64,000 nt of DNA from an uncultured Gammaproteobacteria bacterium (GCA_963803015.1 CAWDKV010000011.1:675021-739020), one strand, 5' to 3'; shown: positions 28,060 to 34,122, numbered from the stretch's first letter. Numbers and translations: made by a program. The notes: generated by a model from the letters alone, not told the origin.

Positions 28060-28085
28060 TATCTTAAATACTTATCTTAAATACT
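28060..28085 (+). promoter_or_regulatory. Perfect 13-bp tandem direct repeat TATCTTAAATACT x2 upstream of the Pro-rich operon; a candidate response-regulator site
   Basis: The copies lie at 28060..28072 and 28073..28085, followed by a partial TA. Candidate -10 hexamers are TACACT (28106..28111) and TATAGT (28115..28120). There is no good -35. Confidence 0.35.
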
Positions 28086-28225
28086 TACCTCTCAACTCGT
28101 GATTCTACACTCACTATAGTTATTGTTTAATTCATCTTCATGGAACTTGTCTCTTTCTTATCTAGTCTTACTGTTAAAACGATAGTCTTATAGTGGTCTT
28201 TGCGATTATTAAGAGGATTTTCTTT

Positions 28226-31200
28226 ATGCCAAAAGACGAAGAAAATAAAGCACCAGAAGTTGATCAATGGGGTGATCCGATCATACCAGCAAGTAAGACG
28301 GGAACACCCGACAGTAAAGATAGTGAAAAACTTACTCCAGAACAAATGCGGAATGCCCTGAAAGGAGGCTTCCAGCAAGCATTAGGGAATAAAGGTGTAG
28401 CTGAAATTAAAAAAACGGATGCTGCAAAGGAAATCATGCAAGATCAAAAAGGACTTTCAGTACAAGAACGAATAAAACTAGCAGAAGAAGAAAAAAAGAG
28501 AAAAGCTGAAGAAGCTAAAGCTGCTGAAGCAGCTGCAGCAAATGCGGAAACAGCTGCACAAGTCACCACCTCATCATTCTCCGCGTCAAGTGCTCCGCCA
28601 CCACCACCTCCTCCCGGAAAAGCGCCACCTCCACCTCCTCCTCCCGGAAAAGGAAAAGGAGCATTTCCAAAGGCCCCAGCCGCAGCTTCTGCTCCTGTAG
28701 TTGAGGCAACTGCTAAACCAGCCTCTCCTATCGCTTCTGCCTCTGATGCTGCTGCAGGTGGACCAGAACAACTAACAGACAAAGCAAAACTAGCTGCGTC
28801 TATCGCTGCAGGATTGCAAAAGAAAAATATAAGAGCTGCTGTAGCTGATGATGAAAATGAAAATGATCAAGACGAAAAAAATGATCAAGACGAAATTTGG
28901 GAGGACGATGCTCCTGCTATCGCAAAAGGGAAAGCTGCAGCCGCTCCGCCTTCCCCTCCTGTTGCAGCTGCATCAGCAGAACCAACCGCCGCACCAGCAG
29001 CACAACCAGCTGCAGCACTAGCAGAACCAGATACACCACCAGCAGCATCTTCTTTTTATACTCTAAGCGAAGATGAGCTGCCCCCTGCGGATACCTATCA
29101 ACCCATTGCAGAACCCACAAACATTTTATCTCGTCAACAAATAGAGAAATTAGACGAATTCATTTCTACAGAAGAATCCTCGCGGAATGGATCTTTTACA
29201 AATGAAATTATTACCCAATTCACAGAAGTAATCGATGAAGAAATTAAACGAGGAAAATTCAATTCATCTCAAAGAGAGAAATTAGAGAATCTTCGCACAC
29301 TTGTGAAGCATGCAGAAAATTTGAACGAAAGCTCAAAAAAAGTTGAATCTGCATTAAAAGAATATGCAACTTCACCGGGCAACGTAAAAAATCAAACTGA
29401 ATTAAGTCAAGCATTAGAAGCTCACTATCAAAACTTAGAAACATATACAACAGTGTATAATAAATGCCTATATCCAATAGGTGGCTTGCAAACAGATAGT
29501 AATTTTTCGGCATTGTTTGACAAGCTAAATTCTATTTCAACCTCCCTTCCAGCACCGATAAATTTTACTACGGGACAAGCCGGCAAACCATTAAATTTCG
29601 AAACTCGCGCTATGGCCCCGATACAAAGAGGTCCTAGATACTCATTACTGTTAAATGAACTCATTACGCTCTCTCCTGAAAATCTTGTTCAAAAGCAATT
29701 CTTAACTGACTTAGTTACAGCAAACCAACAGTCAAATATCAGAATGAATTCATCCACTTTAATCAACCCAGCGGCAGAAGTGGAAAAGAAAGCAAAAGCA
29801 GAAAAGAAAGCAAAGGTCAAAGTAGAAAAGACAGCTAAAACAGCAACATCCACCTCGTTTTTTGGCAACATTGTTGAAACCGTTGGAACAACGTTGGGGA
29901 TTTTGCCAGCAAAGTCAGGTATAGCAAAAACAGAGGCAACAGCAACTTCTTTACCTGTAACAGAGAGTACGGCAAGAGCAGCTTCCGCACCACCAGCATT
30001 AGTAACACCTCCAGTTCCACCGCCACCAGCTGAAGCAATGCCAAGTATAGATCTTACGGAAAATGAACCGTTAACTGATGAAAGTGAGCCGGAACCTGCA
30101 GTGGGTTCTGACACAGAATCTGACATAGAAGATGAAGGGTCTGATATAGAAGAAGAAGCAGAACAGGCAACTCCTTCAGCTACAGATGAAGTTAAAGCAC
30201 CTCGGCCTCCACTACGATCATCATACACAGCGCCGCTTCCGCCGCTGTCAGCACAATCACCAGGCGCAAAAAGCTCAGCTGCGGCATCTTCAGGAGCACC
30301 ACCTGCAGCAGCCACGACGGCTGGTACTGCCGCAGCAAAATCAGATCCGCCTCCTCCTCCGCCACGATCAAAGTTACTAGCGACAGCAACAACAGCTGCA
30401 ACAACAGCTGCAACAACAGCTGCAACAACAGCTGCAACAACAGCTGCAACAACAGCTGCAGCAACACCTGCAGCAACAACACCTGCTGCAACAACACCTG
30501 CTGCAACAACACCTGCTGCAACAACACCTGCAGCAACAACATCTGCAGCAGCAACACCAATAGCCAAAACGCCGCCTGGTGACAAGTCATCAACACCTGT
30601 CGATACATCACGAGAAGAAGCTGAAAACATCTTAAAAGAACATATTGAAAATTGGCCTCAAGTAAAAGGTAGTGGTGGTGAAGAGCTAGGTGAGCAATTC
30701 GTTGCTCTTGTTGCACTTGCGCTAAAAGCACTCTCTTTAGGGGGAACTGTCGCTGATATTAAATTTGGGAAACTGTTCAATGATAAATCAGATGAATTAA
30801 AAAATCTGAATAAAGAGAAAATAAAGCTTCAAGGAGACATAAGAACATTAGAGAATCAGCTTGGGCAAGCAACACCAGGCAGCCCAGAGGCTCAAAGATT
30901 AACAACAGAATTAACGACGAAAAGAGGGGAGCTTTCTCAAGTTGAGGCAAGAATTGCTAGTAGCGCAAATGGAACATTTGAAGCTGGAAGACAAGATTTG
31001 CATGCCCAAGTCACTTCAGCTGGGCAAGATGCTGCAGAAATGGAATCAGCAATCTTTACTGCTGCGCCACCGCCTCCTCCTCCACGAGCTCCCGCAGCAA
31101 CTGACCCAACAATAGCGGGGACTAAAGTGGCAGCGGCTCCTCCACCTCCAGCAGCGGCTATACCTGCAGCTACCCAATTGAAAGCACCGCCGCCTCCTCC

Positions 31201-32197: not shown

Positions 32198-32211
32198 TTA
32201 AGGAGAAAATC

Positions 32212-34122
32212 ATGAGTTCAGGGGGGCCAAATGATTGGGATGACGATGACCATGAAGAAGAGGAAGATACACAAGCCGATAAGCATGTTGGTCAAAGAAG
32301 AGAAATGATCAATAAATTATTTGCAGGTAAATTGCAACCAGCATCGCCCGAGAATCCTCCTGGCCCTGTAGCAGTTGCCCCTACTGAAACTGATAGCTCT
32401 GAAAGCGCAACAAAGGAGAGTGTTCCTGCATCTAAACCACCACCACCCGCTCCTCCTTCGCCAATGAAGGGAAAGCTATCTCCAGCCTCGCCAGTGAATA
32501 AAGGAAAAGATGATTTATTAGCCGCGATTAGAGCAGGGAAAGACTTAAAAAAGGCTCCAACGTCTATAGCCAAACCTGCTGCTAAACCTGCACCTGCGCA
32601 ACCCGGTTTATTCGACGCCCTTTTGGTAAAGTTGGGAACACCTGCTGGATCATCTGATGGCGCTCCAATTAACGGACCAACAATTCAAAGAAAAATTGTA
32701 GGCTATACCACTCATTTATCTAAAGAAGCATTTCAAGAAAATCTTGAATCCGAGTTTGGTGTTGATGCTTTTAGCAAGGGAGATTTTATTCCCGTCTATG
32801 CGGGCCAAGAAGATCAATTTAAAGGTCCCGCTCAAAAGTTAGAAATTGATGTAGACCTAACGAAAGATACGTCAGGAATAATGCAATTTTGGCCACTTGA
32901 AATGCAACAAGGATTTAGTCGTGAATCAGGCTTAGCACCCGCACCAAATGTGCCTGCTGCAGCAGCCCGACTCCCTATAGAACCTTCTCTTGAAACAGTA
33001 GTACCGACACAACCGCTAAGAGCAGGTGAAGAAGTAGAAAGACAATCTTTAGAAGAATCTTCTCAAACCGACGAATTTCCATCCGAAACCGAATCTTTAC
33101 CAGACGATGATGAATCTCTGCCAGATGCAGAAGCCTTAGCTGGCGTAGAACCCTTACCAGACGCAGAAGTCTTACCAGACGCAGAAACCTTAGCAGATGA
33201 ATCTCTTTCTCCTCCCGAACCTCAAATCCCTGATATTTTGGCAGCAGGTGCTGCGCAAATGCCAGCTTTGAGTGGAGATCAAGTAACCTTACGCTCTCAA
33301 CCCCGTGTTGAACTTGAACTCAGCCTCGATGATACCGATGTCCCTCCTCCCCCTCCGCCCAGAAGAAAAAAAGACATAGACGTTGAAGCTACAAAACTAG
33401 CATCCCTACAAACAAAAGTAGTACCACCACCTCCTCCTCCCAGACGGGATGAAGGAGAAGAGGTCATGGACCTGTTTAGCGCATTAGCACCACAGCCAGC
33501 TGCCGCATCATCACCTGATTTATCTACAAAACGAAGCATACCCGTACGTGAATCAGACAGTCCTGAAGATGAAACCGTGGTTGAAGACTTTTTAACTGCA
33601 ACACCACCGACGGTTAGATTTGAGCCCCCTTCTAGAACAACACTATCCAATTTTCAATTGTTAACACAATCGATTAAAAACAAGGTTAATATTGATCCAA
33701 ATTACTATGGCGTAACAAGCCATCAGATTTTAGCGGCTAGACAATCAAGTGAAATGGGGCTAAATGCGACAGAAACTTTTAACTTGAAGATGAAAATGCA
33801 ACCTCCTGCTCAACCACCAAATTATGATATTCATATCCAAGATAATGGCCAAGCCGGTGTTGATTTCTATACTACTCATAAAAGTGAAGAAACTTTAACC
33901 AATATTTGTAAAATGGCAGTAGAGAACGCCGTGCTCGGCACAGATTTTAGCAGCATTCAAGATAGAGATGTTGAGCAACATTTACGCAAAGCGATTGAAA
34001 AGCTGCATAGAGATGACCCTGACAAAGCAGTCAGATTGAATTTATCTATCAATGGAGAAATCGTCCCGCCAAAACCAAGACCCAGCCGACGCCCTTCTCT
34101 TGGCGCTGAGAGAGAGCGGTAA
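32212..34122 (+). CDS. Pro-rich WH2-motif protein, a paralog of the upstream gene through its C-terminal domain
   Basis: 636 aa. A strong SD AAGGAG lies at 32199..32204, and the gap after the upstream stop is 14 nt, suggesting an operon. It has an N-terminal acidic-Trp stretch, a PRD, a WH2 motif, acidic LPDAE repeats, two PPPPPPRR motifs and a shared C-terminal domain. Confidence 0.85.
   Translation: MSSGGPNDWDDDDHEEEEDTQADKHVGQRREMINKLFAGKLQPASPENPPGPVAVAPTETDSSESATKESVPASKPPPPAPPSPMKGKLSPASPVNKGKDDLLAAIRAGKDLKKAPTSIAKPAAKPAPAQPGLFDALLVKLGTPAGSSDGAPINGPTIQRKIVGYTTHLSKEAFQENLESEFGVDAFSKGDFIPVYAGQEDQFKGPAQKLEIDVDLTKDTSGIMQFWPLEMQQGFSRESGLAPAPNVPAAAARLPIEPSLETVVPTQPLRAGEEVERQSLEESSQTDEFPSETESLPDDDESLPDAEALAGVEPLPDAEVLPDAETLADESLSPPEPQIPDILAAGAAQMPALSGDQVTLRSQPRVELELSLDDTDVPPPPPPRRKKDIDVEATKLASLQTKVVPPPPPPRRDEGEEVMDLFSALAPQPAAASSPDLSTKRSIPVRESDSPEDETVVEDFLTATPPTVRFEPPSRTTLSNFQLLTQSIKNKVNIDPNYYGVTSHQILAARQSSEMGLNATETFNLKMKMQPPAQPPNYDIHIQDNGQAGVDFYTTHKSEETLTNICKMAVENAVLGTDFSSIQDRDVEQHLRKAIEKLHRDDPDKAVRLNLSINGEIVPPKPRPSRRPSLGAERER
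32437..32637 (+). other. PRD - WH2 - linker - C-helix-like segment inside 32212..34122
   Basis: The proline-rich stretch is KPPPPAPPSP. The WH2 core LLAAIRAGKDLKKA lies at 32515..32556. A 16-aa Pro/Ala linker follows, then GLFDALLVKLG at 32605..32637. Confidence 0.6.

Follow-up and report, generated by a model that had tools for sequence, protein, structure and literature searches.

MavH (Lpg2425) and RavH of Legionella pneumophila combine one or more WH2-like motifs with a phosphatidylinositol 3-phosphate (PI(3)P)-binding domain and their nucleation of actin is confined to PI(3)P membranes (PMC10381072, PMC13481308). In the same species, SidG uses an acidic domain, in which a Trp is essential, to bind Arp2/3, and this activity is gated by Rac1 (PMC12904589). 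Three uncharacterized Legionella proteins with Dbl-homology (DH)/RhoGEF domains, lmi0545, lha2362, and lfa2256, were listed in 2014 as "protein of unknown function" (PMC4256840). Here, we analyzed 64,000 nucleotides of DNA (the window) from an uncultured Gammaproteobacteria bacterium (GCA_963803015.1, CAWDKV010000011.1:675021-739020), in which two adjacent genes, designated gene 1 and gene 2, encode predicted proteins that invite comparison with these systems. An earlier note on this DNA had described the pair as a bipartite mimic of the eukaryotic actin-nucleation and Rho-GTPase machinery. We moderately favor a different reading, in which genes 1 and 2 encode tandem, modular, fast-evolving effectors of an uncultured member of the Legionellales, directed at host actin and Rho GTPases and located at a variable genomic junction. 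The elements that carry the comparison are as follows (window positions; aa, amino acid positions).

28226..32197, + strand: gene 1, 1323 aa; ATG at 28226, TAA at 32195-32197
28595..28651, + strand: gene 1 aa 124-142, two PPPPPPPGK tracts, PPPPPPPGKAPPPPPPPGK
28772..28909, + strand: gene 1 aa 183-228, CA-like segment, LTDKAKLAASIAAGLQKKNIRAAVADDENENDQDEKNDQDEIWEDD
29141..29728, + strand: gene 1 aa ~306-501, DH RhoGEF-like domain, with Pfam and PDB sequence matches
30632..31045, + strand: gene 1 aa 803-940, helical/coiled-coil module, conserved, with weak coiled-coil Pfam matches
31694..32125, + strand: gene 1 aa 1157-1300, shared C-terminal alpha/beta domain with the core TLKNICKLAVE..GT.F, then a short P/T/S-rich tail
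32212..34122, + strand: gene 2, 636 aa; ATG at 32212
32224..32271, + strand: gene 2 aa 5-20, N-terminal acidic-Trp cluster, GPNDWDDDDHEEEEDT
32434..32565, + strand: gene 2 aa 75-118, proline-rich KPPPPAPPSP (aa 75-84), then WH2, KGKDDLLAAIRAGKDLKKAPT (aa 98-118)
32605..32634, + strand: gene 2 aa 132-141, weak C-helix-like GLFDALLVKL
33643..34065, + strand: gene 2 aa 478-618, shared C-terminal alpha/beta domain, then a basic/Pro tail

Gene 2 resembles MavH and RavH, likewise from the Legionellales, in combining a WH2 that lies within disordered sequence with a separate folded domain, and by analogy the likely common logic would be activity only where the folded domain anchors the protein. However, the gene 2 WH2 is canonical and above the Pfam cutoff, whereas the motifs of MavH and RavH were published as "WH2-like," and the C-terminal domain of gene 2 has no detectable relative of solved structure. 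Gene 1 shares with SidG an acidic-Trp element, an origin in the Legionellales, and a link between a Rho-family GTPase and Arp2/3 within one protein. SidG, however, is a Cys-His-Asp enzyme that binds active Rac1, whereas gene 1 has a predicted DH exchange-factor domain and a C-helix before its acidic tail, and no homology between them is claimed. Like gene 1, lmi0545, lha2362, and lfa2256 have a eukaryote-type Dbl-homology domain and belong to the Legionellales, but neither a CA element nor the shared C-terminal domain was reported for these three. RickA of Rickettsia, Wbm0076 of Wolbachia (PMC9980815), ActA of Listeria, and BimA of Burkholderia thailandensis contain polyproline, WH2 (V), C-helix (C), and acidic (A) elements, as does the pair in the window, which are elements of host class I nucleation-promoting factors either taken over or converged on. 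In these four mimics, V, C, and A are carried by one surface- or membrane-anchored polypeptide, whereas in the window pair V and CA lie on two proteins, CA is near the N terminus, and a DH domain is fused to it. As no single chain carries V, C, and A contiguously, neither protein belongs in the WASP family. VopL/VopF of Vibrio and TARP of Chlamydia are WH2-based nucleators that require oligomerization through a C-terminal domain and contain three tandem WH2s or an oligomerization region. Gene 2 is similar to them in its proline-rich sequence, WH2, and folded C-terminal domain but has a single WH2. The earlier note knew of no bacterial system combining a DH-like GEF (guanine nucleotide exchange factor) with split WCA elements; the single elements nevertheless have precedents in the Legionellales, because MavH, RavH, SidG, and the listed DH/RhoGEF proteins carry them. 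The host-mimicking tricks are thus known singly and are here combined anew, which does not amount to a new kind of system. One component, the fusion of a predicted DH-type GEF to a CA element, is unusual, and one domain family is new.

Gene 1 formally passes the Pfam RhoGEF threshold, with PF00621 matching aa 350-501 (E value of 3.2e-6; 27.9 bits versus a gathering cutoff of 27.6; profile positions 32-173 of 180). The top PDB sequence match of the DH region was the DH domain of Entamoeba histolytica FP10 (8zlf; E value of 0.0066), in which the sequence PVQRLPRYKLLLTDL is aligned with the conserved region 3 (CR3) signature PIQRGPRYSLLLNEL of gene 1 (aa 465-479), a segment that is helical in the structural model. 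A CR1-like EFISTEE at aa 311-317 (EFISTEESS, aa 311-319) was recognized by eye only and lies outside the Pfam and PDB alignments. Eukaryotic Dbl-family GEFs such as FP10 and gene 1 therefore have in common the Pfam RhoGEF match, the CR3 pattern PxQRxPRYxLLLxxL, and an all-helical prediction, but the relationship is remote (~20% identity in the Foldseek alignment), and gene 1 has no PH or lipid-binding domain after DH. No PH or other Pfam domain was found downstream of the DH region; beyond aa 510, gene 1 is Lys-rich and then of low complexity, and the DH region itself is not low-complexity sequence. A PH domain (or BAR or other membrane module) is typical of eukaryotic DH proteins without strictly defining them. 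The DH region had no match in the plasmid collection. On these sequence features, the assignment of gene 1 aa ~306-501 to the DH family is probable. We found no literature on a characterized bacterial GEF with a DH fold, and to our knowledge the characterized bacterial Rho GEFs (SopE and WxxxE types) are not DH-fold proteins.

The second element of gene 1 is the segment LTDKAKLAASIAAGLQKKNIRAAVADDENENDQDEKNDQDEIWEDD, which reads as a WASP-like C-helix followed by an acidic tail with Trp225 and is a candidate Arp2/3-binding element. In local alignments against composition-preserving shuffles, with manually typed WASP, N-WASP, and WAVE C-helix references, this segment scored significantly against the C regions of WASP and N-WASP (p values of 0.009-0.03) and not against that of WAVE. 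An ortholog of gene 1 on Logan contig L082 keeps the segment as AMQERRAAIKDDEDDEQEDVWDPD, with p values of 0.001-0.013, among them 0.001-0.004 against WASP and N-WASP. The Trp and an RAA(I/V)xDDE core are common to both proteins. The putative C-helix and acidic Trp that the earlier note had read in gene 1 are thus conserved in the ortholog and exceed shuffled sequence against WASP and N-WASP. The acidic N terminus that it had noticed in gene 2, MSSGGPNDWDDDDHEEEED, was also borne out: W225 of gene 1 and W9 of gene 2 each have 6 D/E within ±6 residues, whereas none of the 193 Trp residues of the 37 other window genes reaches 6 and one reaches 5. D/E density like that of Trp225 (6 within ±6) occurs at 2% of gene 1 positions. 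The acidic context of these Trp residues is non-random. Upstream of the CA-like segment, the two tracts at aa 124-142 are predicted to be of the profilin/SH3-ligand type.

In gene 2, Pfam WH2 (PF02205) matched aa 98-118 (E value of 5.3e-5; 23.2 bits versus a gathering cutoff of 23.1). The motif DDLLAAIRAGKDLKKA consists of an amphipathic helix (LLxxI) followed by an LKKx motif, as in bona fide WH2s, and the only PDB matches of the region were the WH2s of N-WASP (3m3n_W, E value of 0.013; 2vcp_D) and Spire (3mn7_S). Although the Pfam cutoff was passed narrowly, the near-canonical WH2 of the earlier note holds, and by its sequence gene 2 contains a bona fide, canonical WH2 motif with predicted actin binding. 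The C-helix-like segment reported downstream of it is, at most, a weak half C-helix. GLFDALL lies opposite GIVGALM, the start of the N-WASP C-helix, across a Pro-rich linker and at N-WASP-like spacing from the WH2 (2vcp alignment), but GLFDALLVKL was not distinguishable from shuffled sequence (p values of 0.08-0.8). No acidic tail follows the WH2 of gene 2, and no capping-protein (CPI) motif was seen in gene 2 by eye.

A CA without an adjacent V raises an alternative, in which the gene 1 CA and the gene 2 acidic Trp would sequester or mislocalize Arp2/3 and the single WH2 would sequester G-actin, so that the pair would act as a decoy or inhibitor and on balance suppress host actin assembly, blocking, for example, phagosome maturation or uptake. 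Competitive inhibition is known from isolated CA fragments and from Arpin-type acidic-Trp tails. The acidic domain of SidG, with its essential Trp, binds Arp2/3 and disrupts the cytoskeleton (PMC12904589), and single-WH2 MavH inhibits elongation in solution (PMC10381072). However, membrane-bound MavH promotes assembly, and a DH GEF and long profilin-type polyproline typify assembly-promoting proteins; we regard such an inhibitory role as improbable.

It could also be argued that these motifs arose by chance in low-complexity sequence and that the proteins are not actin or Rho regulators but perhaps unsecreted disordered scaffolds or surface-associated proteins. The Pfam scores are barely above their cutoffs, the predicted DH fold lacks confirmation, the ortholog keeps neither DH nor WH2, and homologs were not recovered in several searches: word-indexed protein searches returned nothing for full-length gene 1 (whose list was probably swamped by low-complexity words), for the alignment of the C-terminal domain, or for the DH region, and neither a genome-collection scan with the C-terminal domain nor metagenome scans with the C-terminal alignment and with gene 2 gave a match. 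On the other side, the PDB matches are specific, the acidic-Trp statistics are non-random, and the DH region is not low-complexity and has CR1-like and CR3 signatures. Because several independent signals, namely, DH, WH2, a conserved CA, two acidic Trp residues, and polyproline, converge on one host pathway, a chance origin is unlikely.

Genes 1 and 2 also share a C-terminal domain, which the earlier note had put at about 85 aa. The homology is clear, but the domain is longer: aa 1162-1300 of gene 1 and aa 478-618 of gene 2 align over ~140 aa with 30% identity (BLASTP E value of 2e-15). When the two-sequence profile was run exhaustively with HMMER against 1.84 billion representative proteins, five true matches emerged, namely, gene 2 itself, P0002 (661 aa), P0003 (240 aa), P0004 (130 aa), and P0005 (477 aa); a sixth match, to Ki-67, was spurious. 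The family core (~100-140 aa) reads x-(T/S)-(L/I)-x-N-(I/V)-C-K-(L/M)-A-V-E ... G-(T/S)-x-F. The AlphaFold2 (AF2) model from a six-sequence alignment, to which the gene 1 domain had been added, was confident and of mixed alpha/beta structure (predicted local distance difference test [pLDDT] score of 80; predicted template modeling score of 0.74). The domain is C-terminal in every member and is followed by a tail of ≤25 residues, which is P/S/T/K/R-rich in most. By sequence it constitutes a new, very small family.

The payloads in front of this domain are diverse. P0005 carries a Macro domain, and the sole notable PDB match of the P0002 N-terminal part, at residues 363-402, was the L. pneumophila Dot/Icm effector Lpg0081 (7w3s/7wbk; E value of 0.0016); both payloads may be ADP-ribose-related. 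P0002 (L084 5186-7171) and the window organism share one sample (ERR11630394). About 2 kb from it, L084 9209-12595 (- strand) encodes a 1128-aa protein with ankyrin repeats and a eukaryote-type RasGEF domain (E value of 9.6e-25), which adds a second eukaryote-like GEF to what is probably a single genome. No adjoining gene with the C-terminal domain was found beside P0002 or P0005. Since the domain also occurs on unrelated payloads without an adjacent domain-bearing partner, a role in common targeting or translocation seems likelier than one in pairing. The BID domains of Bartonella, XVIPCD of Xanthomonas, and P4M/P4C of Legionella are C-terminal domains for secretion or targeting that recur on diverse effector payloads. 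The new family is like them in placing a C-terminal domain with a short tail on unrelated N-terminal payloads, but it is tiny and no sequence or structure similarity to them was found. Lipid binding could not be read from charge, as the domains are near-neutral (pI of 5.4-8.8) without a conserved basic cluster and are uninformative in this respect.

The evolution of the locus was traced with a tblastn search that took genes 1 and 2 and the ortholog as queries and 80 prpD loci as targets; relatives were found in contigs L001, L082, L083, and L084 only. A syntenic ortholog operon, with a PrpD 73% identical to that of the window, is present on L082 and L083, with SRR30849500 and SRR28740823 as the samples for L082. 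The operon comprises a large gene (1637 aa or more, with the 5' end cut by the contig), P0003 22 nt downstream, and a convergent prpD. The large gene has counterparts of the CA-like segment, of the helical module (38% identity with gene 1; E value of 7e-23), and of the C-terminal domain (42-56% identity). The DH domain is absent from it and is replaced by a ~650-aa region without a Pfam or PDB relative, which may be another host-directed module; the same protein (L082 2-4915) has two ~95-aa internal repeats (…AWN(D/E)I(M/I)(A/N)KL(S/P)E…RA(D/E)NP…). P0003 keeps only an acidic N-terminal part and the C-terminal domain (29% identity) and has no WH2, polyproline, or acidic-Trp N terminus. From what is kept in the ortholog, the conserved core of the locus comprises two tandem genes with the C-terminal domain together with the CA-like and helical modules of gene 1. 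DH and WH2, on this comparison, appear as lineage-specific modules of the window organism. The ortholog pair lacks both, which makes the modules interchangeable and means that there is no conservation of an obligate split WCA.

These data bear directly on the bipartite model of the earlier note, an obligate nucleation-promoting factor in which the C-terminal domains would heterodimerize and the gene 2 WH2 and gene 1 CA would together form a WCA that activates Arp2/3, with DH acting in parallel on Rho GTPases. V and CA do lie on separate, co-transcribed proteins with a homologous C-terminal domain, no WH2 was detected in gene 1 by Pfam, and a tandem pair of genes with this domain is kept at the ortholog locus. 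Against this, ortholog gene 2 lacks the WH2 and the N-terminal acidic Trp, ortholog gene 1 lacks DH, and the same C-terminal domain occurs on singletons. Because V and CA are not divided in this way in the ortholog pair, and because singletons also carry the C-terminal domain, the model is not favored and we consider it unlikely. Its most elaborate form, in which an active Dbl-family RhoGEF-CA fusion and a WH2 protein are joined by heterodimerizing C-terminal domains into one complex that switches on Rac/Cdc42 and directly builds branched actin at a single host site, appears quite unlikely. The two proteins are probably independent modules rather than an obligate split nucleation-promoting factor.

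We therefore return to the reading of genes 1 and 2 as tandem modular effectors. Inspection of the N termini and hydrophobicity revealed no signal peptide and no transmembrane or hydrophobic segment in either protein. Translocation into a host is suggested by this absence, the eukaryote-type domains, the module shared by diverse payloads, the Legionellales background, the ankyrin, leucine-rich repeat (LRR), and orphan neighbors, the variable site, and the fast divergence. An autotransporter or surface protein in the style of RickA, BimA, or IcsA was considered and rejected, as both proteins lack signal peptides and hydrophobic segments and their C-terminal domain is small and alpha/beta rather than a beta-barrel.

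Export, GEF activity, and actin activity of the pair are predicted from sequence. Both proteins would be exported to the host cytosol, most plausibly by a type IV system of the Dot/Icm kind, and the ~140-aa C-terminal domain with its tail would serve as a common address, either for targeting to a host site or for recognition by the secretion system. The PH-less DH domain of gene 1 would promote nucleotide exchange on a Rho/Rac/Cdc42-type GTPase, and its N-terminal polyproline and C-helix/acidic-Trp elements would engage profilin or SH3 proteins and Arp2/3. The single WH2 of gene 2 would bring actin monomers, its acidic-Trp N terminus may contact Arp2/3, and the PPPPPPR(R) motifs of both proteins would serve to recruit SH3-domain adaptors. 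Shared transcription and targeting would place both proteins at one site.

Several points weigh against this interpretation. Most of both proteins is of low complexity, in which short motifs easily arise, and gene 1 is composed of 18% A, 12% P, and 10% T. The matches to PF00621 and PF02205 exceed their cutoffs by just 0.1-0.3 bits, so that the two profile checks named in the earlier note were passed, but narrowly. The AF2 model of the DH region, built from a single sequence without alignment depth since the homolog search was empty, was all-helical but of low confidence (mean pLDDT of 49.7), and its Foldseek search was not significant (E value of >0.1), with 8zlf ranking 2-3 (E values of 0.3-0.75; TM scores of 0.24-0.41). 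Of the RhoGEF-like region proposed in the earlier note, the Pfam match and the 8zlf match with CR3 thus stand, and the helical-bundle fold is unconfirmed. The shuffle test of the CA-like segment depends on manually typed references, and a phmmer search of the CA-like segments against PDB gave no match. The absence of DH from the large ortholog gene and the lack of WH2 in P0003 mean that neither belongs to the conserved core in the only ortholog pair found. Foldseek and profile searches of PDB revealed no meaningful structural relative of the C-terminal domain (matches to designed proteins were helix-composition artifacts), and because the domain is also near-neutral, without an obvious basic patch, its role is a guess. 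Finally, no type IV secretion or dot/icm genes are present in the 64-kb window.

The remaining features of the two proteins and the layout of the locus are as follows.

27235..28056, + strand: ppsR, left flank of the insertion site
28057..28225, + strand: intergenic region 5' of gene 1, with a tandem repeat and a Shine-Dalgarno (SD) sequence
28211-28217, + strand: SD of gene 1, AAGAGGA, eight bases 5' of the ATG
30347..30367, + strand: gene 1 aa 708-714, PPPPPPR
30386..30558, + strand: gene 1, tandem repeat of period 12/15/30 encoding (A/T)-rich ATTAATTAA...TPAATTPAAT, a disordered spacer
31067..31204, + strand: gene 1 aa 948-993, P/A-rich stretch with PPPPPPR (aa 948) and PPPPPR (aa 988)
32200..32205, + strand: SD of gene 2, AAGGAG, inside the 14-nt intergenic gap
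33121..33197, + strand: gene 2, 18-nt tandem repeat with acidic (L/E)PDAE(A/T/V)L units
33343..33447, + strand: gene 2 aa 378-412, two PPPPPPRR motifs (aa 378 and 405)
34125..35540, - strand: prpD, convergent right flank; 2 nt between its stop and that of gene 2

Inspection of the ORFs and start sites agreed with the earlier note on two ORFs 14 nt apart, each with an SD, located between ppsR and a stop-to-stop prpD with a 2-nt gap. A longer GTG ORF from 28193 is a possible alternative start of gene 1. Consensus scans revealed no convincing + strand terminator 3' of gene 2 and no strong + strand sigma-70 match in 28057..28225. Four of the five PPPPPPR motifs counted previously have six prolines (gene 1 aa 708 and 948; gene 2 aa 378 and 405), and the fifth (aa 988) has five; PPPPPPR would fit the class II SH3-ligand pattern PxxPxR. 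The in-frame repeats at 30386-30558 and 33121-33197 are likely length-variable.

The two ORFs are not assembly artifacts, because an independent assembly, the Logan ERR11630394 short-read contig L001, has a gene 2 identical to that of the window, followed by prpD, and preserves gene 1 in its final 564 codons. This contig begins within the gene 1 tandem repeat at 30386-30558. Long - strand ORFs lie antisense to genes 1 and 2 at 28444-28782, 29689-30630, 30192-30731, 30937-31668, 32292-32573, and 33297-33650. They encode Gly/Ala/Val runs, which arise from the Pro/Ala/Thr-rich sense frame, and are not genes. G+C content was considered as a sign of recent horizontal transfer. It is 0.45-0.51 at the locus versus ~0.40 but at background (0.39) in the DH region; because it follows the Pro/Ala-rich stretches, the raised value is uninformative on transfer.

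A perfect tandem direct repeat, TATCTTAAATACT x2.2, is located at 28060-28087, just past the ppsR stop and ~140 nt 5' of gene 1. It was found only once in the window, with no enrichment of the half-site elsewhere, and from its sequence it could be a response-regulator binding site. A role of this 13-nt repeat as a PmrA-like regulon box was considered and set aside, given its single occurrence in the window and the unenriched half-site; nothing similar was seen by eye 5' of P0002 or of the RasGEF gene on L084.

The closest PrpD matches among GTDB representatives were 55-63% identical and included a Coxiellaceae metagenome-assembled genome (MAG). For PpsR, identity was 63% with the protein of this MAG and 52-53% with PpsR of Legionella, and the prpD-ppsR neighborhood is common to the window, the Coxiellaceae MAG, and Legionella genomes. 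On the basis of PpsR identity and this synteny, the organism was placed in a deep Legionellales lineage, and it probably lives in protists. The prpD-ppsR junction is empty in L. feeleii (L066), holds a ~520-aa ORF, GH18/chitinase-like by eye, in L. longbeachae and L. steelei (L073 11862-13439 and L074 11481-13049), and holds a 305-aa acidic orphan in the Coxiellaceae MAG (L002 11554-12471). It looks like a hot spot for lineage-specific genes.

Among the housekeeping genes of the window are genes for ankyrin-repeat and LRR proteins (22503-24599 and 58763-59716, both + strand) and five sizeable ORFs without a Pfam family (9755-11623, +; 11604-13292, -; 20887-22347, +; 57669-58649, +; and 59905-61266, +). 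Such a pattern is typical of effector-rich Legionellales genomes. The window ppsA (24774-27172, - strand) is split into three overlapping ORFs (24774-25460, 25438-25887, and 25787-27172), whereas the Coxiellaceae MAG L002 has an intact 792-aa ppsA adjoining ppsR; the split reflects either a pseudogene with two frameshifts or assembly indel errors.

Should gene 1 prove active, no earlier bacterial effector would have been shown to use the eukaryotic DH fold, which is here joined to a predicted Arp2/3-binding element. In this uncultured Legionellales lineage, DH, WH2, CA, Macro, and Lpg0081-like modules appear to be shuffled onto a constant C-terminal domain, and this domain could be a handle for finding further effectors in Legionellales genomes.

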